Source: Escherichia phage PhaxI
Reading direction: 5' to 3' (one strand)
Sequence record: JN673056
Length of the DNA: 64,000 nt
Shown here: one piece after another, positions 2,554 through 54,832 of the stretch
How the letters are laid out: every line of letters begins with the position of its first letter
How positions within the stretch are numbered: position 1 is the first letter of the stretch
Made by a program: the position numbers and the translations under genes
Notes under the pieces: generated by a model
The model's input: only the letters and a program-made list of their open reading frames with translations
Database searches by the model: none
Told to the model about the DNA's origin: nothing

Positions 2554-3068
2554 TTCGTTTCCTCTTGCTTGTTGATCGTAATTAATAAATCGGTGCCCAA
2601 GACTTTCTTGGACAATATATTGATTGCTTCATGAATCGCCATTATTGACGGGAGTTTTTCATCGTTAATTTCGGAACCCCCGCGTTCTGTTAAATACATA
2701 TTACGCAGACGATTGTGCTGTGCCCTGTTGACACAAGAAACATTCAATGCGATATTCAGGATATACATCATTTGTTCAGTTGTAACATCCTTTGGAATAG
2801 CATGAACATAATATATCGCATCTTCAAAATAGATATGCTGTAATGACTCTGGAATTTCTTCCCCGCCAAAAGCAAAATCTTCAATGCGTTTAAAAAGTGT
2901 TTCCGGCTCTGGTGTTGTAATATGTTGCGTTACAGTAGCCGCACCATCTGGTTCTTTGTTGAATTTGGTCGCGATAACGACATGTCTGCCAGGTTTAATA
3001 AACTCAGCAAAGTTCTGTGCCATTTGCGGGGCGTGTTCCGCGTAATATGATACGACGACTGTAAACAT
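2538..3068 (-). CDS. Hypothetical protein
   Basis: 176-aa ORF tightly packed between uvsX and the pyrophosphatase gene; no motif recognised. Confidence 0.45.
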   Translation of the reverse strand: MFTVVVSYYAEHAPQMAQNFAEFIKPGRHVVIATKFNKEPDGAATVTQHITTPEPETLFKRIEDFAFGGEEIPESLQHIYFEDAIYYVHAIPKDVTTEQMMYILNIALNVSCVNRAQHNRLRNMYLTERGGSEINDEKLPSIMAIHEAINILSKKVLGTDLLITINKQEETKWPIH

Positions 3069-3613
3069 TAGAACTCCAGAGTCAAAGGGGTTTCCGCGGA
3101 CTTATCATAGTTCGCACCGCCAGCAGCACGTAGACGATTGCGATCGTTCTTGCGCTTGTGGGCCAGCATGTAGGTCTCAGCATCCAGCCCCAAATATCCG
3201 CAAGCCGCTGCCAAGAAGGTAGCCAAAACATTCCGAAGAGGGTGTGACATGAAATACGTGAACAGTTCAGTCACTTTCCTGAGGTCGTGAGGGGTTTGAA
3301 TTGGCTGCGCCTGAACGAATCTCACCATTTCGGGAATATCGTGTGGTTTGTCTTCCTCCTGCAGGACAGCACAGAGCATGAAGTGAACAACGTCCACCAA
3401 CTCGTATATGGCATCCACTTGTCGCCAATGCTTACCACCCCCATAGATCTTCCAGTCTATGGTTGTTTCGTCTAGAAACTCTGCCCACTCACGATAGATG
3501 GAGTTTGCTATCGCCACTTCGGTCCAGCGCTTCTTCCACTCTTCCCCAAAATAGGCCACGTTGGTGGCCTTTTGAAGTTCGAGCAGACTTTTAATATGCT
3601 CTGCTGTGATCAT
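3068..3613 (-). CDS. All-alpha NTP pyrophosphatase (dimeric dUTPase/dCTPase-like; possible T4 gp56 analogue)
   Basis: 181 aa; LLELQKATN...EEW...REWAEFLDE...VDVVHFML pattern typical of dimeric dUTPase/dCTPase/MazG-like enzymes; abuts the dNMP kinase gene. Confidence 0.5.
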   Translation of the reverse strand: MITAEHIKSLLELQKATNVAYFGEEWKKRWTEVAIANSIYREWAEFLDETTIDWKIYGGGKHWRQVDAIYELVDVVHFMLCAVLQEEDKPHDIPEMVRFVQAQPIQTPHDLRKVTELFTYFMSHPLRNVLATFLAAACGYLGLDAETYMLAHKRKNDRNRLRAAGGANYDKSAETPLTLEF

Positions 3614-4194
3614 TTCCGATCCCTATAAAATTTGACGAACGGTTGCCAACCTTCAAACGGATTGACAAATTCATAATCAACTTCCATCTTATCAATGAAA
3701 GCCTCAATGTCATCCTCTATGATACCACCGCGATCCGCCTTTGAAATGCGGGTGATGGGACATTTAGTGCTCAGCGCCCATTCATATTCCTGAGGGGTGC
3801 GCAAATCACTCACGATATAATGAACGTGTGGGTTCTGTTCCACCAAAGGAAGTTGATATCGTTTAAAGAATGACAGAAACAGGTCTGGTTGTACGTAACG
3901 CAAGCCCGTATCGCTGCCGAGATGAAGCCAGATCTGCCTTGGGGTTAATCCCTTGGGGTTATCTGGGTGAACATATGGCAAGTCCTTGATGTCGTCCTCC
4001 ACCTCCGCTGGTAGCCATGGGTAGATGAAATTGGCGACACGTCGCAGTTCATCTGAGAAAGACAGACGACGAATATCCTTATCACCCTGAATATGATGAA
4101 ACCTGATCAGGGACTCCAAACAGAAGTCCTTGCCGGAGCGCTTGCGCCCCGTGAAGAATTCAAGGTTCTGGTACATCATTCGCCATACCCCCAC
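3610..4194 (-). CDS. Deoxynucleoside monophosphate kinase (T4 gp1-like)
   Basis: P-loop TGRKRSGKDF near the N-terminus, as in T4 dNMP kinase (VKRSGKD); 194 aa. Confidence 0.6.
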   Translation of the reverse strand: MGVWRMMYQNLEFFTGRKRSGKDFCLESLIRFHHIQGDKDIRRLSFSDELRRVANFIYPWLPAEVEDDIKDLPYVHPDNPKGLTPRQIWLHLGSDTGLRYVQPDLFLSFFKRYQLPLVEQNPHVHYIVSDLRTPQEYEWALSTKCPITRISKADRGGIIEDDIEAFIDKMEVDYEFVNPFEGWQPFVKFYRDRK

Positions 4195-5219
4195 ATAAAT
4201 TTCTGATCAACAGGGGAATGTAGTAATGCAGTACGAAGACCGTCATCAGCGATACGGCGTTTGTCAATTTTGGTATCATTGAGTCGACACCACAGGCAAT
4301 ATGACATATCCATCATCAATCCCGTGTCTGCTTGATATCCTTTCAGATGTTCTCTGATTTTACCAAAATCACTGCCGATGTCACAGTGATGTAACACGCC
4401 GAGGAATAGATTACAAATATCTTTTTGGGACTTCACTTTTTCTGAAGAGAATTCCAGCAAAGAATTATACATCCCAGAAGAAGTTTTGGTCTTCTTAGTG
4501 ATACCCCCGAGTTGTTTCCGACTAACTTCATTGTTGTAATAATGAAGATTGTTAGAAAACAGTTTGTAATACCCAACTTCGACATTCAGCACTTTCGCCA
4601 GAACTTCTTGCAGGATAGAGAATTCAATGAAATTGATTGAACTCATGCCCCACAAGACATCTTGGCTGCGGTTAATGACAGTGATATTCAATCGCCCTTC
4701 TGTTATACTGAACAATAGAGCAAGATTACAGATCATGTCCTTGGTCTTGGCTTCTCCAGTTTCACTATGGGTGGCCAAACCTTCATCTGAGTCCAGCGCC
4801 GGATCATAGATGGTGAGATACGCCTGACGGGTGTTGGGATTATTACGCAGACGGCTGATGACACTATCCAACTGGCCATTATTGTACAGACGTGGGCCAT
4901 ACGCGCCTCGCCAGGTTACACCGTCATCAGAGAAGTTGGCGGCGCGGGGTAAGACTTTCGAAAGGAAACGGATATCATTACGTCCGGACAACACCCAGAA
5001 TGTCTCACCGATGGCAGCAATTGCCGACGAGTTGCGGCCTTCAACGGAAAGCCAACGGTCACGTGGATCTGATACTGTAATTGTTACACCATCAATGAAA
5101 CGAGTGCCGTCAGTGTTAATCTCTGCGTTGCCAGGATCTGACTCAATGCCGTGTTCACGGATGGCCAACACAGCCTTCTTCAGCATATCATTATTGTTTA
5201 AAGCAAAAATTTCCATCAA
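4176..5219 (-). CDS. Thymidylate synthase-family enzyme (deoxypyrimidylate hydroxymethylase/methylase-like) with a C-terminal extension
   Basis: 347 aa; TS-like blocks ETFWVLSGRND, TRQAYLTIYDP, candidate nucleophile Cys in DMICNLALLF followed by RSQDV...SSINF (aligns by eye with TS PPCH...RSCDV...PFN); about 100 extra C-terminal residues. Confidence 0.6.
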   Translation of the reverse strand: MMEIFALNNNDMLKKAVLAIREHGIESDPGNAEINTDGTRFIDGVTITVSDPRDRWLSVEGRNSSAIAAIGETFWVLSGRNDIRFLSKVLPRAANFSDDGVTWRGAYGPRLYNNGQLDSVISRLRNNPNTRQAYLTIYDPALDSDEGLATHSETGEAKTKDMICNLALLFSITEGRLNITVINRSQDVLWGMSSINFIEFSILQEVLAKVLNVEVGYYKLFSNNLHYYNNEVSRKQLGGITKKTKTSSGMYNSLLEFSSEKVKSQKDICNLFLGVLHHCDIGSDFGKIREHLKGYQADTGLMMDMSYCLWCRLNDTKIDKRRIADDGLRTALLHSPVDQKFMWGYGE

Positions 5220-5890
5220 TCAATACTCCCAAAATCACGATTGAGAAACGCAAAAACAGCCTGCTCTATAGTCAGGCCATTGGACTTCATCATACCTGCG
5301 GGAACGGTAGGGAACAAGCCTTTATGCCGTTGGCGGTGGTCATGAACTCTCTCCCACTTCTCGACCACCAGGCTTTCATTGAAGTCTGCGCCGCCGTTGC
5401 GTGATTTCACACGGGAAACACAGGTTTCAAGCGGGGTGTCCATGAAGAGCACGACTAATTCGCGCGGTGGGCGCGTCAGGCGGGGAATCCATGAGCTGAG
5501 CAAAGTTGAAGGGATGATTCCTTCAAACAACACGTCATATTTCAGATATTCCGGCTGATCAGCAATGGACAAGGCGAACAACATCTGCTCGGTATCTTTC
5601 AGGGAATCAACACCTTTAGACTTAGACTTGTCATATTTACCAATACAGATAATGTTATAGGAAGGGCAAACTGTGAGCATGATCTTGCCATTGTAGGTCA
5701 CGACATACGCCTGAGGATCATTCTCCGCCAGATAGGAAGGGACAGTGGACTTGCCGCTACCGTTGGAGCCTTTAACGTAATACAACTCTCCTCGTGCCGG
5801 ATATTCCCCTTCGACAGCAGGTGGTTTTACAAACAGATGTACGGGGCGCTTCAACAACCCTTTGAGCGAATACGACATGGTGTGCTCCAA
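5216..5890 (-). CDS. P-loop kinase (nucleotide or polynucleotide kinase-like)
   Basis: Walker A GSNGSGKST at residues ~42-50; 224 aa; ATGA-type overlap with the TS-family gene. Confidence 0.5.
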   Translation of the reverse strand: MEHTMSYSLKGLLKRPVHLFVKPPAVEGEYPARGELYYVKGSNGSGKSTVPSYLAENDPQAYVVTYNGKIMLTVCPSYNIICIGKYDKSKSKGVDSLKDTEQMLFALSIADQPEYLKYDVLFEGIIPSTLLSSWIPRLTRPPRELVVLFMDTPLETCVSRVKSRNGGADFNESLVVEKWERVHDHRQRHKGLFPTVPAGMMKSNGLTIEQAVFAFLNRDFGSID

Positions 5891-5950
5891 TAAACAAAAG
5901 GAGCTGCTATTATAGCAGCCCCTTCATCTATTGAATGCTTCTGAGTTAAA

Positions 5951-6910
5951 TTACGCAGCAGCTTTCGCTTCGGCCAACGCCTGAGGTAGCCATTCGTTGA
6001 TAGCCTTTACCAGAGATTCAGCGTCAGTTTCTTTGATTTTCTGACGCTTGGTGAATGACTTACCATTCACATACAGACTGAAACCCCAGCCGCCGGAAAC
6101 GATAGGCGCCAGATCAACATAGGTGTTAGTGCGGGCATGCGGATTGGCTTCGTCTGCCAATTCAGTGACAGGGAACTGGAACCAGCGCATATCAGGGTTC
6201 ACATAACTCAAATATACTTCAGGAGTAACCCCTGCTTCAACCGCCGCCAGGATTGGACCATAGTTAGAAGCACGAGCCGCTTCAACCATTTCTTCACGCT
6301 TGTTATGACGACGCTTGCGTTCTTCGGTAGAAGATGCAGGGCGCATTTCAGAAGATTTCTTGGCCAGAACCGCCTTCGCGTTCGCTAAAGCCTGATCATC
6401 CTTCGGATTTTCAACGTCGGCGATTGCTTCAGCAACGGTTGTGCCCAGCATGCGACGGCGAACTTCTTCAGCACGGGCTTGCGCTTCTTCGTCAAGAACT
6501 TCTTCGCCTTCAACTACCAGGGAAATGGAACCGTCTTTGTTGACTTCAAGAGAACCGTCTTCGACGGTCTGGGAATTTTGATCACCGACAGGTTGCCCAA
6601 CCGTTTCTTCGGCGTCAATCACCGGATTTGATTCACCGTCGCCCTGTTTAACCCCCGCATCTTCGGTCGGTTTAACTTTTTCGGCTTCAGCGCGGTCAAG
6701 AGCTTCGAGAGTTTCTTCTTTCTCTTCCTGGCTCAGACCTTCAATGAGTTCAAAGCCGTTGGCTGACTGGAGGACGCCTTCCATCATACGGCGTAATGTT
6801 ACATTGCCAATGATAAGGTCTGCACCTTTGATTTCTGCTTGAAGATCAGCAGCGGTTTTACCATCAATTTCAAATTTCAGGCCGGACTCGATATGAAGAA
6901 TATAGGACAT
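5951..6910 (-). CDS. Hypothetical protein with a strongly acidic central region
   Basis: 319-aa ORF with an E/D-rich low-complexity middle; AAAGGG RBS upstream. Confidence 0.5.
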   Translation of the reverse strand: MSYILHIESGLKFEIDGKTAADLQAEIKGADLIIGNVTLRRMMEGVLQSANGFELIEGLSQEEKEETLEALDRAEAEKVKPTEDAGVKQGDGESNPVIDAEETVGQPVGDQNSQTVEDGSLEVNKDGSISLVVEGEEVLDEEAQARAEEVRRRMLGTTVAEAIADVENPKDDQALANAKAVLAKKSSEMRPASSTEERKRRHNKREEMVEAARASNYGPILAAVEAGVTPEVYLSYVNPDMRWFQFPVTELADEANPHARTNTYVDLAPIVSGGWGFSLYVNGKSFTKRQKIKETDAESLVKAINEWLPQALAEAKAAA

Positions 6911-7083
6911 AATAAAAACCCTTTTGTGTAGTAACCTTCTTTGGCAGTCTAATGTTCAACTGTGCGTCTGGAACATTAATATACTGCCTTTTTAGAAGAT
7001 GTAAACCACTTTTTATTGAAAAGTTGGTTAACACTTCTGTGTTAGACAACGGAACGCTGTATCAGCGCGGACTGGCGTGAATA

Positions 7084-32649: not shown

Positions 32650-34979
32650 TCCTTCTTAATCACTTCGGTCATGCCATTACGCAGACCATAACGAATGTTA
32701 TGTTGGAAATATTCTTGGAACTCCTGCTCACGCTGACTGATGACAAACAGATTGTTCCCACCAAATTTATGTTTCAGCATCTCGATGGATTCTTGAACCC
32801 CTCGCTCACTCATGTTTTCGAGTATCTCATCCAACACGAAGAGGTTACATTGTACAGACGCCTTCAGGTTAGCGACGTCCCGTAGGGCTAATGTCACAGC
32901 CAGATTGAGTCGGCTGCGTTGTCCTGTAGACAGGGAGAATATGCTTTGCCCTTTACGACCAGCAGCGCTCATGGTGATTTCAAATGTATCATCAACAGCA
33001 ATATCCAAGAACATATTGAGTGCTTCAAGATACTCGTTTATTTTACTATTGAGGAAAGGCAAATACAGACTGATAATTCGAGCCTTGGTCTGATCATCTT
33101 TTAGGAAGAACAGAAGATGGTTCAGTCTTGCAATTTCCTCATCCAACTCTACGCGCCGCGCATTCAGATCTTCCATTAATGCCGTGATGCGAGCGATCTC
33201 TTCTTCCAGGGCGTCAGTTGGTGTCGGCTTAACCGCCAATTTACGCTCTAAATCAGCAATGGATGCCTCCAGAGGGGCACGGCGTGATTTCAGGCTGGTG
33301 AGTTTATCAGCCGTGTCGTTGATACTCTTAGAGAGCTGCTCACGCGCTTGACGGATTGACGTCGTGATATCTTCGTAACGGGTGTCTACGGCCTTGAGGA
33401 CGTCGTTAATTTTGGACTGTTGTTCCCGCTGTAAAGATGTTTTCTCAACAGCAGCGACATCATAGAATCCTTGGATGTCGCGTTTTAATGTAGCGATCGC
33501 CGATTCCGCTTCTCGAATTTCATTGCGCAAAGCATCCAGTTCTTTGTCAACAACCGAAATCTGAGAAGATAATTCTGAATCTCTGACATTGTAATTCTCA
33601 ATCAGGGAATTCACTTCTTCTAGGGCTGTATCAACCTGAAGAATCTTGTCAGTCAGTTCACTGATTTGTGGATAATATTGACTTTCAATGCGTGATTTGG
33701 TATCGTCCGACACTAATTGCGTACACGTAGGGCAAGTGCCCATATCGTGGAAACGTTTGATGGCAGATTCATGGCCTTCCATTTCTGTGACGAATTTGAA
33801 ACGGAAGTTCTCTCCCTGTTGACGCCGCGCCAACGCTTTATTCAGTTCGTCGAGATTAGCATTCCTCTGACCGACTAGTTCGTTTTTGCGTTCTGCGACC
33901 ACCGCCATTCTTTCGCGGATTTCTTGTAACGACCTTTCGCCGTCGGATACTTCTATGTGTTCATAATCTTCAGCCTTGGTATCGGCTTCATCCTGAACTG
34001 CTTGGATTTTGGCCGCATACTCTTCATTGATGGCATCGATATCCCCTTTCATTTCGGCATTCAGGCGATTACGGACTTCTGATAATTCTGATTCCAATTT
34101 AGAGTCTTGAGCACGGGACTCTGTCAGTTGTTCCTGCACTGCGCCGATATCTGAATTCAGGCTATTCAGACGTTCCTTCTCTTGGACAAGGATATCCGCA
34201 GATTGTTGCTGGATCATCGCATTGGAATTATTGATCTGTTCCAACTGCGCTTGCTGGCCTTTTAAATTTACATCATGAAAGGCGTAATCATTGGTGACCG
34301 TCGTGAGTTCATTCGTTACTGTCTTGATAGATGCTTTTACATCTTCATTCATCAGACTGAAGAACCCCAAATCCCAGATTGTCTCTACCATAGCGCGACG
34401 GTCGGCAGTGTACATTTCCGTGAATGGGATGAACTTCTCTTTGCCTAGAACCAGGGAGTTCTCAAACATCTTCTGGTCTACGCCAATCAGGTTCACAATA
34501 TATTTGTTCATGTCGGCTTTGGCCGCATCATTCACGACCTGCTTCCACTCACCGTCTACCATCTGATAGACTTCTACGAAATCAGGTTTGATATCACGAC
34601 GGACTTTCCATTCACTTCCTCGAGTGGAGAACTCAACTTCACCCACGCATTCCTTTTTGTTTTGGGAATTGACTAATCCGGCTTTCTTTTCTTTCTTGCT
34701 ATATGTGTCATTATACAGAACGAAGAACAGCAGCCAGACAAGCATGGTGGATTTACCAGCGCCATTGTCATCGGATGTAACCAAGGTTGCCGAATTGCGT
34801 TGGTAATCAATTTCCATGAATTCATTACCGATGGAACGGAAGTTTTTAGCGCGACCGCGATGGAATGTCAGTTTGTGGGTAATTTCCCCACGGATTTCAA
34901 ATGGTGCTTCAACAGAAACAGGAGTGTCCGCTTCTTTCAGAAGGGAACCGAATTTAGACAGTAGATCTACATTGCTCAT
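32646..34979 (-). CDS. 46: Recombination endonuclease subunit gp46 (Rad50/SbcC-like ATPase)
   Basis: Walker A GAGKST, zinc hook CPTC, ABC signature LSTGQRSRLNLAV, Walker B LFVLDE, long coiled-coil middle. Confidence 0.9.
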   Translation of the reverse strand: MSNVDLLSKFGSLLKEADTPVSVEAPFEIRGEITHKLTFHRGRAKNFRSIGNEFMEIDYQRNSATLVTSDDNGAGKSTMLVWLLFFVLYNDTYSKKEKKAGLVNSQNKKECVGEVEFSTRGSEWKVRRDIKPDFVEVYQMVDGEWKQVVNDAAKADMNKYIVNLIGVDQKMFENSLVLGKEKFIPFTEMYTADRRAMVETIWDLGFFSLMNEDVKASIKTVTNELTTVTNDYAFHDVNLKGQQAQLEQINNSNAMIQQQSADILVQEKERLNSLNSDIGAVQEQLTESRAQDSKLESELSEVRNRLNAEMKGDIDAINEEYAAKIQAVQDEADTKAEDYEHIEVSDGERSLQEIRERMAVVAERKNELVGQRNANLDELNKALARRQQGENFRFKFVTEMEGHESAIKRFHDMGTCPTCTQLVSDDTKSRIESQYYPQISELTDKILQVDTALEEVNSLIENYNVRDSELSSQISVVDKELDALRNEIREAESAIATLKRDIQGFYDVAAVEKTSLQREQQSKINDVLKAVDTRYEDITTSIRQAREQLSKSINDTADKLTSLKSRRAPLEASIADLERKLAVKPTPTDALEEEIARITALMEDLNARRVELDEEIARLNHLLFFLKDDQTKARIISLYLPFLNSKINEYLEALNMFLDIAVDDTFEITMSAAGRKGQSIFSLSTGQRSRLNLAVTLALRDVANLKASVQCNLFVLDEILENMSERGVQESIEMLKHKFGGNNLFVISQREQEFQEYFQHNIRYGLRNGMTEVIKKD

Positions 34980-34981
34980 TA

Positions 34982-36097
34982 TTATGCATCCAATGTGTTC
35001 AGGCGTTGTTGGGCAGCATTATAGAATTGTTCTGCTAATTTGCAAACATTTTCAGGGCGCTGGATATTATTGGCGGCGCGGATATCTTTCTTCAAGACTT
35101 CCACCGCATCAGTAGCCACCATCTCTTCAGTGACTTCTACCTTCTCGGAAGCAACAGTAATCGTCCGATCGATGAAGTTGTAATCGATGCATTTACAGCG
35201 CTTCAATGCGTCACAGAACTTTTCATAATGCTTGGCATTGTCACGGTTCTGTACAATCACCTTAACGATTTGCCCTTCAATACCCAAAACATTGTTTAAC
35301 CAATCGGGGTCGATCCAATTACCTTCAGTATCAGAAGACATTTGGGTGTAGTCGTATTCCACGAACCGGAACAACGTTTGTTGTTCGTTGTTGGGGATAA
35401 ACAATTCCCCGCCATTCATGTCGTCTACATAGAATCCTCGGTTCGTCCCGTCTTTGTGGTCTTCCCAGGTAAGGTGATAAGGAGTCCCAATATACTGAAT
35501 GTTACCTTCCATCGAACGGGTATGGAAATGTCCGGTATCCACGCGCTCGAATTTCGAAAGGAGCGCCAAGTCGATCTGACCTTTATCACATACAGAGGAC
35601 TGGTACATTTTGAACCCTGCCAACTCCAGATGCGCAAAACAGTACTTGGCGTCTGTATCTTGTATCGCTTTAATGGACGCATCATAGTTCTCTTTGTTAA
35701 TCCACGGCAGTAGGAGGGTCTTGACACCTTCAATCATTACTTCAGTTGGTTCGCTGTAATAATGATAAACCTCCGGTGCCAATTCATTAAGATAAGAAGG
35801 CCAGTTAATACGATTGGACTCTTCTAACGTGATATCATGGTTGCCGACGATGCCATTCCATTTAATACCTGCTTTGCGCAGCGCTGGCGTCAATTCATCT
35901 TTCAACCAATCTTTATCGCGACCATACATGAATTTGCGAACATCAAACGTATCACCAAATTGCCACACTTCTTTAATATCGGCGTCAACCAATTCTGGAA
36001 TAAAATAATTGATGAGATAATTCTTTATGAATTCTCGAACGTAACGGGAACCATTACGGCTCCCGATATGTAAATCGCCAATTTTAGCAATCGCCAT
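34982..36097 (-). CDS. 47: Recombination endonuclease subunit gp47 (Mre11/SbcD-like phosphoesterase)
   Basis: Phosphoesterase motifs IGDLHIG, GNHD, GHFH; immediately upstream of gp46. Confidence 0.9.
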   Translation of the reverse strand: MAIAKIGDLHIGSRNGSRYVREFIKNYLINYFIPELVDADIKEVWQFGDTFDVRKFMYGRDKDWLKDELTPALRKAGIKWNGIVGNHDITLEESNRINWPSYLNELAPEVYHYYSEPTEVMIEGVKTLLLPWINKENYDASIKAIQDTDAKYCFAHLELAGFKMYQSSVCDKGQIDLALLSKFERVDTGHFHTRSMEGNIQYIGTPYHLTWEDHKDGTNRGFYVDDMNGGELFIPNNEQQTLFRFVEYDYTQMSSDTEGNWIDPDWLNNVLGIEGQIVKVIVQNRDNAKHYEKFCDALKRCKCIDYNFIDRTITVASEKVEVTEEMVATDAVEVLKKDIRAANNIQRPENVCKLAEQFYNAAQQRLNTLDA

Positions 36098-41743: not shown

Positions 41744-42062
41744 GGGGTTCTCCCTGAGACAGTATGGTTTTCATCTGTTCACGCGTGATAATTGTTTCAA
41801 CAAGATTCTCGTCAATCATCATTTCGTTTAACAGTTCACAACCCAGCACGTGTGGTCGCGCCATATACGGCATCGTGTTGAGTTTTTCTTCTATGTCAAG
41901 AACGCGCTTGACAGTCAGACCCATAGAAGAAAAGGGAACAGGATAAAAGAATGAAATGATCTGATTATCCATCCCGTTTGAAAATCTTACCAACAATACA
42001 TCACACCATACGCCGGACATATTACACCTCCAGACGGTTACAATGAGAAAGCGCGTTATCAA
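41733..42062 (-). CDS. Hypothetical protein
   Basis: 109-aa ORF; overlaps neighbours at both ends. Confidence 0.35.
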   Translation of the reverse strand: MITRFLIVTVWRCNMSGVWCDVLLVRFSNGMDNQIISFFYPVPFSSMGLTVKRVLDIEEKLNTMPYMARPHVLGCELLNEMMIDENLVETIITREQMKTILSQGEPHVE

Positions 42063-42690
42063 TCTGTTCCCGAGACAGATATTCCCAACGGGTTGCGAGA
42101 AATACGCGTCTAACAGCAGCAGTTGAGCACAGCGCGATTACGAGTTTCCTCTCCATCATGATACCGTTCATATGTGGTGAACGGGCTGTCCATACAACAT
42201 ACTGACCTAAATCGTCGTTGGCAGTCAGGCTAATGCGAAACTGATTACACAATTTGTCGATTAACGCATAATCATATGTGAACGTCCCTTCAGTTTTCCA
42301 GCTTGATTTCTTCACCTGAAGAGCTTCACCACGAGTTCTGAATTCTAACGTCACTCCATGAGTTTCATTGTCGAAATGAACAACTCTCTGAGTTTCATTT
42401 TTCAGAGTCCGGTTCATATTATGTACGAAGAAACGGGCGTCGATCTCCCTATTGCTCATGGAATTAAAATCGATCGGCCAAAAACGAGCGCGCATAATCG
42501 CGCCTTCTGGCAATACAATTAGTCCATTTTCACGGGAGACATAGCAAAGACGTTTAACTACAGGGTCAGGATGTTCCACACAATAAACGGAAATTCCAGT
42601 GGGAAGGATAGCGTGGGCGACAACACCAGATCTTTCAAAATATAAATTACCCTGGTCAGCCCCGATGATAATACGGCTCTTGTTGTTCAT
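42022..42690 (-). CDS. Hypothetical protein
   Basis: 222-aa ORF. Confidence 0.45.
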   Translation of the reverse strand: MNNKSRIIIGADQGNLYFERSGVVAHAILPTGISVYCVEHPDPVVKRLCYVSRENGLIVLPEGAIMRARFWPIDFNSMSNREIDARFFVHNMNRTLKNETQRVVHFDNETHGVTLEFRTRGEALQVKKSSWKTEGTFTYDYALIDKLCNQFRISLTANDDLGQYVVWTARSPHMNGIMMERKLVIALCSTAAVRRVFLATRWEYLSREQIDNALSHCNRLEV

Positions 42691-42747: not shown

Positions 42748-43542
42748 TTATTTTATATCACCGACATACATGTTCAAACTTTCATCCCATTCTAAACGAA
42801 CACGAATAGTGCCAGAATCGTTTGGGAAAGACAATTTGTCGCACATATGACGATTTGCATATGTTCCGCTCTTATTAACAGGATAATCTTTACCTTCACC
42901 GATTGCGAATCGTTTGAAGTTCCGACTCACCATCATATTGATGTTAGGCCACTGCAATTGTTCCCGTAGGGTTTTGCACAATATAATCTTCCCATTAGAC
43001 CGGAAAGACACGAATAAATCATTTGGTGAAGAAAATCGCCTTTCTTGCGGGCATAATTGCCTGATTGAAATAAACTCAGATTCTTCTTTATTCTCAACTG
43101 GAGACTTCACGGGTTCTTCTTTTCGTTTTTCTGCATATTGCTCAACAGCCTTTTGGCTGATAGGCGGCAGATCAATAGAAGGGGAGATGACTGCGGGCTT
43201 AACGACTGGTGAAGTACGAGCAGCAACAAGTTTTTCCTGAGCTTCCAGAATTCTCTCTTGGCGAGATTTTGGTCGAGTATCAACCTTGGAGCTGAAATCA
43301 CAAACCGTAACCCAATCACCCTGATCATTGCGCTTGGCAACCAGAGTCAGTTTATAGATGATGCCCTGCAGCTTGCTTTCGCGCATAGTGTCTGCGAACC
43401 AGAAAGCACAACCCTGCTCGAACTTTTCAGCGAAGATGACGCGTCCGTCTTCGTGAATCAGAATGACCTTTGCTTTGTTGGGCGCGAACATCTTATTCTT
43501 TTCAATGATCGATTCGGCGATCTTTTTGGTAATAATCATCAC
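42748..43542 (-). CDS. Hypothetical protein
   Basis: 264-aa ORF. Confidence 0.45.
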   Translation of the reverse strand: MMIITKKIAESIIEKNKMFAPNKAKVILIHEDGRVIFAEKFEQGCAFWFADTMRESKLQGIIYKLTLVAKRNDQGDWVTVCDFSSKVDTRPKSRQERILEAQEKLVAARTSPVVKPAVISPSIDLPPISQKAVEQYAEKRKEEPVKSPVENKEESEFISIRQLCPQERRFSSPNDLFVSFRSNGKIILCKTLREQLQWPNINMMVSRNFKRFAIGEGKDYPVNKSGTYANRHMCDKLSFPNDSGTIRVRLEWDESLNMYVGDIK

Positions 43543-45441: not shown

Positions 45442-45464
45442 GATATAGTTCCTTCATTTCAAAT

Positions 45465-45487
45465 GGGCGGGGCAAAGATACCCCGCC
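45465..45487 (-). promoter_or_regulatory. Intergenic stem-loop cassette (PeSL-like), copy 1
   Basis: GGGCGGGGcaaagataCCCCGCC flanked by TATAAAC and CATTTGAAATGAAGGAA-ATG. Confidence 0.5.
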
Positions 45488-45493
45488 GTGGGT

Positions 45494-46000
45494 TTATAGG
45501 GTAACAAGTGATACGGTAAAAACCATCGTCCCATCTGTTGTCATTTTTCTTGAAACTGGGAAGACGCGAGGCTGACAGAATATCCATTCTTTCTCCATGG
45601 ACGCCAAGTCCAGCATATCCATTTCTGATTCATCGCCTTTGTTCACAAATTTTTCTAGAGAACCAAAGACATTAAGCCCCTCTGGGAGTCCGTTTCGATG
45701 TTTATAACAAATGCGGGCAACAGCTTTGGTTCCATACGATTTAGAAAATTGTTTGGCCACATGCTTCAGTTCGCTGAAACTAAGACAAGAATCCCATGTC
45801 TGAAACATGTCTCCTCGTTCAAACATCATCTCCAAACGCGCAACGTCCTCTTTAGGCAACCCGCGATAAAGTGTGGTCATCTGCGGTTCGCGTAATTCTT
45901 GCACCAGACCACGGATGGCAGGGGAAACAGTGCCAGGGCGCATGATGTGGGACTTATCATGGACGAGGTAAAATAAATCTTGAATTTGTTGATCGGTCAT
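45494..46000 (-). CDS. Hypothetical protein
   Basis: 168 aa; preceded by a second copy of the same cassette. Confidence 0.45.
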   Translation of the reverse strand: MTDQQIQDLFYLVHDKSHIMRPGTVSPAIRGLVQELREPQMTTLYRGLPKEDVARLEMMFERGDMFQTWDSCLSFSELKHVAKQFSKSYGTKAVARICYKHRNGLPEGLNVFGSLEKFVNKGDESEMDMLDLASMEKEWIFCQPRVFPVSRKMTTDGTMVFTVSLVTL

Positions 46001-46024
46001 GATGTATTTCCTTCATTTCAAATA

Positions 46025-46047
46025 GGCGGGGTAATCATACCCCACCC
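46025..46047 (-). promoter_or_regulatory. Intergenic stem-loop cassette (PeSL-like), copy 2
   Basis: GGCGGGGtaatcataCCCCACC flanked by TATAAC and TATTTGAAATGAAGGAA-ATG; near-identical to copy 1. Confidence 0.5.
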
Positions 46048-46059
46048 TAAGTTATAGAA

Positions 46060-46293
46060 TTAACTGATGTGCTTCAGAAGAGCGAAGAGGATCGCGGCCT
46101 TGGCTTTCACCTTTCCGACGACGCCTGTTTCGACATCGACTTCTTCGGCAACCCAATCTTTTCCCTTCTTGCTGATGATAACATCGCGGCGCTGGGCATA
46201 TACTTCTTTGGTCGCATACACACGACGGAACCCTTTAGCGCGGAGCAAGCCCCAATTACGATCATCTCCACTGAGTTCTACCATTTGTCTCAT
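46060..46293 (-). CDS. Hypothetical basic protein
   Basis: Start set at MRQMVELSG (AAAGGTAGATATATCATG); the track ORF extends to 46350. Confidence 0.4.
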   Translation of the reverse strand: MRQMVELSGDDRNWGLLRAKGFRRVYATKEVYAQRRDVIISKKGKDWVAEEVDVETGVVGKVKAKAAILFALLKHIS

Positions 46294-46412
46294 GATATAT
46301 CTACCTTTCACCTGTGAACCCATCGTTCGCCAGTTATTGAATATACGCATTTGCCTTATAGAAGTAAACCCCTAAAAGTAAAAATCCCCCAACGTTTGTT
46401 GGGGATCTTCAG

Positions 46413-53105: not shown

Positions 53106-53201
53106 GGTATAGTCTTCCTGTTTCAGTTCAAAGTGAGCGCCCTTATCGGGGCGCGTCGTTAAAGTGAGGTCAATATACGCTGAAAAGATTTATTGAAAAG
53201 T

Positions 53202-53609
53202 TTAAACGGGAATCATGTTTACTCGAATACTTCTGAACTGTTTCCCGTCATAACTGGTGTAACCAACAACCGTAACTGATCTTGTTCCCTTTGGATAACC
53301 CTTTGGAGTACTCACAACGCGCACAGGGCGCTTGCTTTCTTTATCGTATTTCGAAATCAATTTCAAAAGATGTTTATCGATCTGGCTTAAACTATCACCA
53401 TACACGGTATATTGATATTGCTCGCAATTACCCAACAAAATGATAAATTTATAAATTTTGTCGACCAAAGATCGACATTTTGGATCATCATAATGATGCC
53501 GACAGACTTGACATTCATATTTCCCAGTATTCATGTTGAACAATTTTGTCGCCCGACTTGAACACGCTGGGCATACTTTCCATGAACGATGATGTTTTAC
53601 GGGTTTCAT
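53202..53609 (-). CDS. Zinc-ribbon protein
   Basis: CPACSS...CQVCRH (two CxxC pairs); 135 aa. Confidence 0.45.
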   Translation of the reverse strand: MKPVKHHRSWKVCPACSSRATKLFNMNTGKYECQVCRHHYDDPKCRSLVDKIYKFIILLGNCEQYQYTVYGDSLSQIDKHLLKLISKYDKESKRPVRVVSTPKGYPKGTRSVTVVGYTSYDGKQFRSIRVNMIPV

Positions 53610-54832
53610 TTTTTCATCTTCTCTAACAGATTAATAGAACGAACGGGAGTCTTCTGTAATGGCTGATTAACTTCACCACCATTATACCCCACCTTTCCTC
53701 GAGGTTTCTCCCCGCGCATCACCGCCTCAACGCAGCGGGTATATTTCTGAAGTTCACAGAACATGTTCTCCAACTGCATAACATTCATGCAACGGTCTTC
53801 CGGTTCTTCTGCCGACCAAAATTCATTACGTTTATACCCGTACTGAGCGAACAATTGATCTTGATGATCACGAACCCAGAATATGCATTCTTCATGCGTC
53901 ATGCCGTCCTTGTCCAAAAATAACAGATCGATACCAGCACGGCAACCTGGACCAGCGATAGTGAAGTGGTTTTCACTGAATGGATATTCATCGATGTATG
54001 TAAAATCAACCCAAATCTGGTATGCCAAGAATGGTCCAAGCCCCTCAATGTCGTCATACATCGCCTGGTAAACAGAGTCGGGACGGCTAAATTCCCTGAG
54101 GCGATCAAAGTAATGAGGGTGTTTGTTGACGAATGCCTTCAAAGAGCGGATGACTCGCATCGGCATGTATGGTTCCCAGCCTTCTATTTTGTATTCACCA
54201 GGATTATCTTCGGCCAGCTTCTTGGCAACCTTGTAATCCATTTCATCTATAACACCGCCAACCCGATGGACTTTTACCTTCATGCCGCCAAAGCGTTGCT
54301 CCTTGTGGTTGACAACTAGTTCAGGGAAAGCCAGGCATTGTTTCAGACCGCCTGTATTAAACGCATTGGTGAAAACTTTGCCACCTTTAGATTCGAATTC
54401 CTGAAGAACATCTCGACACCATTCAAGATTTATGTTTCCGAATTCTTCGATCGTCCATGGACCACCCAAAGCCTGTATAGGTTCCCACATGTTGTACATG
54501 CGGAACAATACACAGTTGAACATTTTGTCAGATAGCGTGAGATCCTGATCGAGGATGATATTATTGATCAAATTTCGAGACTGCCTATCGTGCTCTCTCC
54601 GGACGTTACAGAACTTGACCTGCCGTAGTATGGGATTATCCGTCCAAGGAGCAGGAAGACGCTGGACGTCCTTTCTCACGTGGATCTTATAACGCTCGCT
54701 CATCCATTCGTATGCGAGTTGTTTATGGAATGGGCTTAACATGGGATGTGCAGATTTAATTTTAACTTCCCGAACACCGCAATAAGGAATGTCACACGGT
54801 TTATCTTTCATGGTATCCTCTCTAGAATACAA
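53606..54832 (-). CDS. Hypothetical protein (408 aa)
   Basis: Long ORF with no recognised motif. Confidence 0.5.
   Translation of the reverse strand: MYSREDTMKDKPCDIPYCGVREVKIKSAHPMLSPFHKQLAYEWMSERYKIHVRKDVQRLPAPWTDNPILRQVKFCNVRREHDRQSRNLINNIILDQDLTLSDKMFNCVLFRMYNMWEPIQALGGPWTIEEFGNINLEWCRDVLQEFESKGGKVFTNAFNTGGLKQCLAFPELVVNHKEQRFGGMKVKVHRVGGVIDEMDYKVAKKLAEDNPGEYKIEGWEPYMPMRVIRSLKAFVNKHPHYFDRLREFSRPDSVYQAMYDDIEGLGPFLAYQIWVDFTYIDEYPFSENHFTIAGPGCRAGIDLLFLDKDGMTHEECIFWVRDHQDQLFAQYGYKRNEFWSAEEPEDRCMNVMQLENMFCELQKYTRCVEAVMRGEKPRGKVGYNGGEVNQPLQKTPVRSINLLEKMKK

Follow-up and report, generated by a model that had tools for sequence, protein, structure and literature searches.

A predicted 5-hydroxymethyl-2'-deoxyuridine DNA kinase of Escherichia phage PhaxI, orthologous to ViI gp67, adjoins a thymidylate synthase family gene

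The protein gp67 of Salmonella phage ViI was described as a predicted kinase of thymidine-hypermodifying phages by Lee et al. (2018, PMC5889632). In the same study combined lysates expressing ViI gp67, gp160, gp226, gp243 and gp247 converted 5-hydroxymethyl-2'-deoxyuridine (5-hmdU) DNA to 5-(2-aminoethoxy)methyl-dU (5-NeOmdU), the native base of ViI, and a co-association of the kinase acting on 5-hmdU DNA (5-HMUDK) with a dUMP hydroxymethyltransferase was reported. Lee et al. (2021, PMC8989533) identified gp67, which corresponds to YP_004327432, as a 5-hmdU DNA kinase; in vitro it yielded the same 418-u product, 5-PmdUMP, as gp54 of phage M6. According to both studies gp67 uses ATP to add one phosphate to DNA-borne 5-hmdU at its 5-hydroxymethyl group, and the resulting 5-phosphomethyl-dU (5-PmdU) is an intermediate toward 5-NeOmdU.

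The biochemically best characterised 5-HMUDK is M6 gp54. Its gene is one of five, gp51-gp55, that form a compact hypermodification cluster, and the enzyme feeds a glycine/rSAM pathway to 5-NedU (PMC5889632, PMC8989533). Incubation of M6 gp54 with [gamma-32P]ATP led to label in the DNA, with ADP as the sole other main product, and about 23% of the 5-hmdU in SP8 DNA was converted to 5-PmdU (PMC8989533). The same in vitro activity was found for ViI gp243, a second enzyme from the same phage group as gp67 (PMC8989533). The 5-hmdU DNA kinase family is still in use and being extended in 2026 (PMC13458397).

We analysed a stretch of 64,000 nucleotides from Escherichia phage PhaxI (sequence record JN673056), referred to as the window. 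An ORF on the minus strand runs unbroken from 5216 to 5890 and comprises 224 aa if counted from a TTG codon (ORF listing). Direct reading of the sequence identified a Walker A motif or P-loop, GSNGSGKST, at 5744-5770 on the minus strand (residues 37-45 of the protein as defined below). The initial annotation had placed a Walker A kinase with this motif directly upstream of a thymidylate synthase (TS) family gene. Both the ORF and the motif were confirmed, and the match to the Pfam family PF18748 (E = 1.6e-116) is far beyond chance.

The reading frame proposed in the initial annotation is real, whereas its start had to be revised. Translation almost certainly begins with the ATG at 5878 and not with the TTG at 5890, because a GGAG Shine-Dalgarno sequence (5885-5888, minus strand) is located 6 nt before the ATG, the TTG overlaps this GGAG and the annotation of ViI uses the same ATG. 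The minus-strand letters around the GGAG and the ATG are TTGGAGCACACCATG. In phage Mutine a ribosome_binding_site is annotated under the match to the kinase gene. The coding sequence of the presumed 5-hmdU DNA kinase, as defined by the ORF, the PF18748 match and the orthology to ViI, thus extends from 5216 to 5878 on the minus strand and encodes 220 aa. Between this gene and the preceding gene at 5951-6910 a consensus scan detected a terminator-like hairpin with 13 pairs and a T-rich tail (5897-5925, minus strand). It looks like the terminator of the gene preceding the kinase, a sign that is weak on its own, and in the same scan terminator-like sites in the region showed no excess over shuffled sequence. 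In the phages Maynard, Mooltan, Matapan and Mutine a terminator is annotated somewhere inside the 4-kb stretch matching 3000-7000 of the window.

A profile search intended to distinguish polynucleotide kinase (PNK)-like, dNK and 5-hmdU DNA kinase families had been proposed with the initial annotation. Using Pfam, we found that the protein belongs to the last of these: PF18748 (HMUDK_HMUD1, 5-hmdU DNA kinase) was matched with 387.2 bits against a gathering score of 27, and the alignment runs end to end, with residues 15-210 of the kinase on positions 1-196 of the 196 profile positions. Every other kinase or ATPase family stayed under its Pfam cutoff. The dNK family (PF01712) reached 11.9 bits compared to a cutoff of 27 (E = 0.19), Zeta_toxin reached 15.7 bits compared to 22.3, and DNMK (PF21448), the family of T4 gp1, gave no match to the ORF. 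AAA_33 (PF13671), which we take to cover PNK-type kinase domains, scored 19.8 bits compared to 27 and aligned with the P-loop only (residues 35-61). The PNK-like reading was rejected on this basis. A search of NCBIfam revealed no model matching the protein. A clear place in one of the ordinary families of nucleotide kinases would have spoken against a DNA-level enzyme, and with Pfam no such place was found.

The closest characterised protein is ViI gp67 itself (Vi01_061c, orf00067), which is located at the syntenic position in the ViI genome. Both proteins have the same length, start codon, neighbours and orientation, and 219 of 220 residues are identical; the exchange S182R is the sole difference. 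We regard them as the same gene in sister Kuttervirus genomes. Proteins with 100% identity to the kinase of the window had already been deposited for the phages S118, 4HA11, Mutine and FSL SP-029. A copy that differs by one residue from an assayed protein and is identical to deposited sequences is an already known and characterised enzyme. Together with the full-length PF18748 match, the identity to the assayed gp67 bears out the leading idea of the initial annotation, a kinase that acts on modified bases at the DNA level. Since the protein shows the full-length family match, an intact P-loop with the family motifs, and orthology to a characterised member, we assign it with high confidence to the 5-hmdU DNA kinases of type 1, as the predicted orthologue of ViI gp67. 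ATP-dependent phosphorylation of 5-hmdU in DNA would be its activity, as judged from homologues and from gp67.

With megablast the segment 3000-7000 matched 268 phage records; apart from a few, their hosts are enterobacterial (Salmonella, Klebsiella, Escherichia, Dickeya), and the match to Salmonella phage Vi01 (ViI; Ackermannviridae, Kuttervirus) was 96.3%. The window is collinear with 33-93 kb of ViI, with a nucleotide identity of 77-94% per aligned block, and its region 20-44 kb is 98.4% identical to phage CBA120 (24 kb compared). Within the otherwise collinear region the compared ViI segments gave no nucleotide match for the stretches 42033-42682, 43026-43227 and 45449-46318. The ORFs in these stretches include 42022-42690 (222 aa) and 45494-46000 (168 aa), and the stretches probably represent accessory genes of the variable kind.

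Four consecutive minus-strand genes with overlapping stop and start codons form a compact row (3068-5878), and the kinase gene is the first of them. It is located directly upstream of the TS-superfamily gene (4176-5216, minus strand; PF00303 Thymidylat_synt E = 1.3e-14, phrog_3676 E = 8.7e-183) in the direction of transcription, and in the sequence TGATG one base belongs both to the TGA stop codon of the kinase and to the ATG that follows. An association with the gene of a TS-superfamily dUMP hydroxymethylase is expected of a 5-hmdU DNA kinase of type 1 and was observed here. With 52.8 bits compared to 327 the neighbour lies far under every thymidylate synthase equivalog cutoff of NCBIfam, which fits the role of a dUMP hydroxymethylase described for this phage group (PMC5889632); the presumed product is 5-hmdUMP. 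Next comes a gp1-like dNMP kinase, whose ATG overlaps the stop codon of the TS-family gene (ATGA); it is located at 3610-4179 on the minus strand with an ORF to 4194 (phrog_139 E = 7.8e-48; annotated as 'dnk' in ViI). This gene in turn overlaps by 4 nt, 3610-3613, with the gene of a dUTPase_2 or MazG-type NTP pyrophosphohydrolase (3068-3613, minus strand; PF08761 E = 6.4e-9, phrog_173 E = 2.4e-42). Beyond the pyrophosphohydrolase follow a phage ACT-like gene (PF24021, 2538-3068) and uvsX (1468-2553). The initial annotation had framed the locus by comparison with T4. The gp1-like kinase that it placed at 3610-4194 was found, whereas the genome is that of a Kuttervirus of the Ackermannviridae and not of a T4-type phage.

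The run 3068-5878 is apparently one translationally coupled nucleotide and modification module, which apparently combines 5-hmdUMP synthesis, the phosphorylation of this nucleotide, a presumed clean-up of the pool and the first post-replicative step. The kinase adjoins the TS-family hydroxymethylase for a functional reason. The neighbourhood recurs in other phages: in Serratia phage 3M a gene annotated as thymidylate synthase again lies next to the kinase, and the kinase match in Vibrio K-series phages falls on top of a thymidylate synthase annotation.

A location within a nucleotide-metabolism operon would also be expected of a small P-loop kinase for free nucleosides or dNMPs, for example a dedicated 5-hmdUMP kinase, and the initial annotation had named a nucleoside or dNMP kinase as its alternative. 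Weak sub-threshold similarities point in the same direction, namely the dNK match mentioned above, a match to the thymidylate kinase cluster phrog_761 (E = 3e-4) and one to a guanylate kinase in the PDB (E = 0.17). However, all of these matches lie under curated cutoffs while PF18748 is matched from end to end, the gp1-like dNMP kinase two genes downstream makes such an enzyme unnecessary, and ViI gp67, a nearly identical protein, phosphorylates 5-hmdU that is part of a DNA polymer (PMC8989533). We consider a free-nucleotide kinase very improbable, and prefer the assignment as a 5-hmdU DNA kinase.

A different label is found in the databases. The PHROG cluster phrog_800, which the protein matches with E = 4.4e-68, is named terminase small subunit, and the same product name is used in RefSeq for Vi01_061c, ECML-4, Maynard, Mutine, S118 and others. 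The match to phrog_800, however, covers only positions 3-220 of a profile with 511 positions, which suggests a mixed or fusion-containing cluster. No terminase family of Pfam or NCBIfam was matched, the protein carries the Walker A kinase motif in addition to the full PF18748 domain, and its gene is located among genes for nucleotide metabolism and replication and not among packaging genes. Kinase activity was shown for the orthologue ViI gp67 (PMC8989533). The family assignment in Pfam, the surrounding genes and the biochemistry of the orthologue effectively refute the reading as a terminase subunit, and we give it hardly any credence; the label looks like an annotation error that originated from a mixed cluster. 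It is attached to this gene in the records NC_015296.1 (Vi01_061c), NC_025446.1, NC_022768.1, NC_049428.1, NC_049437.1 and others, and is spreading with new phage submissions.

Equally negligible is the chance that the enzyme is a pyrophosphotransferase making 5-pyrophosphoryloxymethyl-dU (5-PPmdU), as once proposed for phiW-14 and SP10: a pyrophosphorylated intermediate was inferred in early labelling work (summarised in PMC5889632), but M6 gp54 and its homologues including ViI gp67 gave only the monophosphorylated base, with no pyrophosphorylated base seen even at 5 mM ATP, and ADP accompanied the M6 gp54 reaction as the only other major product (PMC8989533).

The assignment as a 5-hmdU DNA kinase is also reflected in the conserved residues. 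M6 gp54 belongs to PF18748 as well and shares the motifs GxNGxGK[ST]T, G..Y, GxD, FEG, P.E and the LID-like motif R...RNGG with the PhaxI protein, but both are only about 28-31% identical, and the M6 enzyme lacks an N-terminal extension of roughly 35 residues that is present in the Kuttervirus protein. For a family alignment we used seven sequences, reaching as far as M6 gp54, with a lowest identity of 28%. The homologues aligned included proteins of Serratia phage 3M (58% identity), Vibrio phage 207E48.1 (47%), Bacillus phage YungSlug (31%), Pseudomonas phage M6 (gp54, 28%) and Bordetella phage FP1 (28%). Invariant in all seven sequences are G37, N39, G40, G42, K43 and T45 of the P-loop and, beyond the P-loop, G80, Y82, G89, D91, G120, P149, E151, R156, R160, N161, G163 and K174. 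At the acidic position of the FEG motif every aligned sequence has E or D, and the position of the S182R exchange is not conserved. K43, S44 and T45 are predicted to bind phosphate and Mg, D91 and E119 would be acidic catalytic, Mg-binding or Walker B residues, and R156 and R160 are putative LID arginines.

A PDB search with the single kinase protein gave nothing significant (best E = 0.057). Using the family profile, the best match among solved structures was gluconate kinase GntK (1knq, E = 7.9e-6), over the P-loop and an R...R-x-G segment, and the other matches were generic P-loop proteins. Neither the single protein nor the profile revealed a solved 5-HMUDK structure in the PDB. GntK is a small-molecule sugar kinase with partial similarity and not a member of the family, but the match of the profile suggests the same basic kinase architecture, and it leads us to expect a small kinase of the P-loop class that has an arginine motif of the LID type. 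An AlphaFold2 model built from the single sequence was of no use (mean pLDDT 35, pTM 0.30). Other phage P-loop phosphotransferases differ in their targets: the dNMP kinase gp1 and the polynucleotide kinase of T4 act on a nucleotide phosphate or on the 5'-OH end of DNA, whereas the gp67 type acts on the hydroxymethyl group of a base inside DNA (PMC8989533).

One further gene of the ViI pathway was identified in the window. An orthologue of ViI gp160, a DNA-glycosylase-like protein of the aGPT-Pplase1 type, is encoded at 53606-54811 on the minus strand (PF18723 HMUDK_hel, E = 6.1e-85). It is 80% identical to ViI gp160 (tblastn), and its ATG at 54811 was confirmed. Lee et al. (2018, PMC5889632) give gp160 the name aG/PT-PPlase1 in their Table 3. 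The main text of the 2021 pathway paper mentions it once, as a component of the five-lysate mix, and the part of the enzyme table consulted does not contain it. Directly downstream of the gp160 orthologue, with an overlap of 4 nt, is an ORF of 135 aa (53202-53609, minus strand) with weak zinc-ribbon matches. ViI has no nucleotide match over 53198-53675 of the window. This zinc-ribbon-like ORF is shared by 79 Ackermannviridae records, CBA120 (99.3%) among them, and by phages of Klebsiella and Serratia (67-76%).

The genes of the remaining enzymes of the lysate mix, gp226 (PALP), gp243 (PF18747 HMUD2) and gp247 (the amino acid:DNA transferase, PF18724), map to 140-152 kb of ViI, and tblastn matches to them were absent within the 64-kb window. 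Likewise, tblastn revealed no paralogue of the kinase in the window. On the basis of the close similarity to ViI and CBA120, the PhaxI genome is predicted to contain the full pathway, with the rest of it carried outside the window.

In such a pathway the adjacent TS-family hydroxymethylase would convert dUMP to 5-hmdUMP. The dNMP kinase and the NTP pyrophosphohydrolase would then presumably channel 5-hmdUTP into DNA and keep dTTP and dUTP out, and the polymerase would place 5-hmdU instead of T in the DNA. The kinase is expected to bind ATP via the Walker A loop and to pass its gamma-phosphate on to 5-hmdU within polymeric DNA, at the oxygen of the hydroxymethyl group, with 5-PmdU and ADP as products. 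The phosphate of 5-PmdU would serve as leaving group, so that a serine:DNA transferase of the gp247 type could swap in serine, and a PLP decarboxylase of the gp226 type would complete the formation of 5-NeOmdU, a base that protects the DNA from host nucleases.

The second kinase of ViI differs clearly from the gp67 type. The protein gp243 (304 aa) belongs to another Pfam family, PF18747 (5-hmdU DNA kinase 2), and is barely alignable with the kinase of the window (21% identity over 145 aa, E = 0.44, BLASTP). The gene of gp243 (Vi01_196; 34620-35534 of a ViI segment) is located near the DNA polymerase gene and gp247. It matches PF18747 with E = 5.6e-169, yet its RefSeq name is 'guanylate kinase', a misleading product name for this hypermodification enzyme. 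The gp67 type is apparently translationally coupled to the hydroxymethylase in a nucleotide-metabolism operon, and the gp243 type adjoins polymerase and transferase genes. A division of work between the two kinases of Kutterviruses, by timing, by DNA form (fork or single-stranded compared to duplex) or by sequence context, is conceivable but in our opinion rather unlikely. If it were true, the gp67-type enzyme would help to set what fraction of the 5-hmdU is turned into 5-NeOmdU and what fraction goes back to T, and the N-terminal extension absent from M6 gp54 could be the element for specificity or recruitment.

For annotation the consequence is that the names "hypothetical protein" and "terminase small subunit" should give way to 5-hmdU DNA kinase for this gene. 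The enzyme type also serves as a tool for labelling 5-hmU. The presence of the kinase predicts 5-NeOmdU in the DNA of the phage and a resistance to many restriction enzymes, and the step catalysed by gp67-type kinases opens the way to at least five hypermodifications of thymidine, which shield the DNA of phages against restriction.
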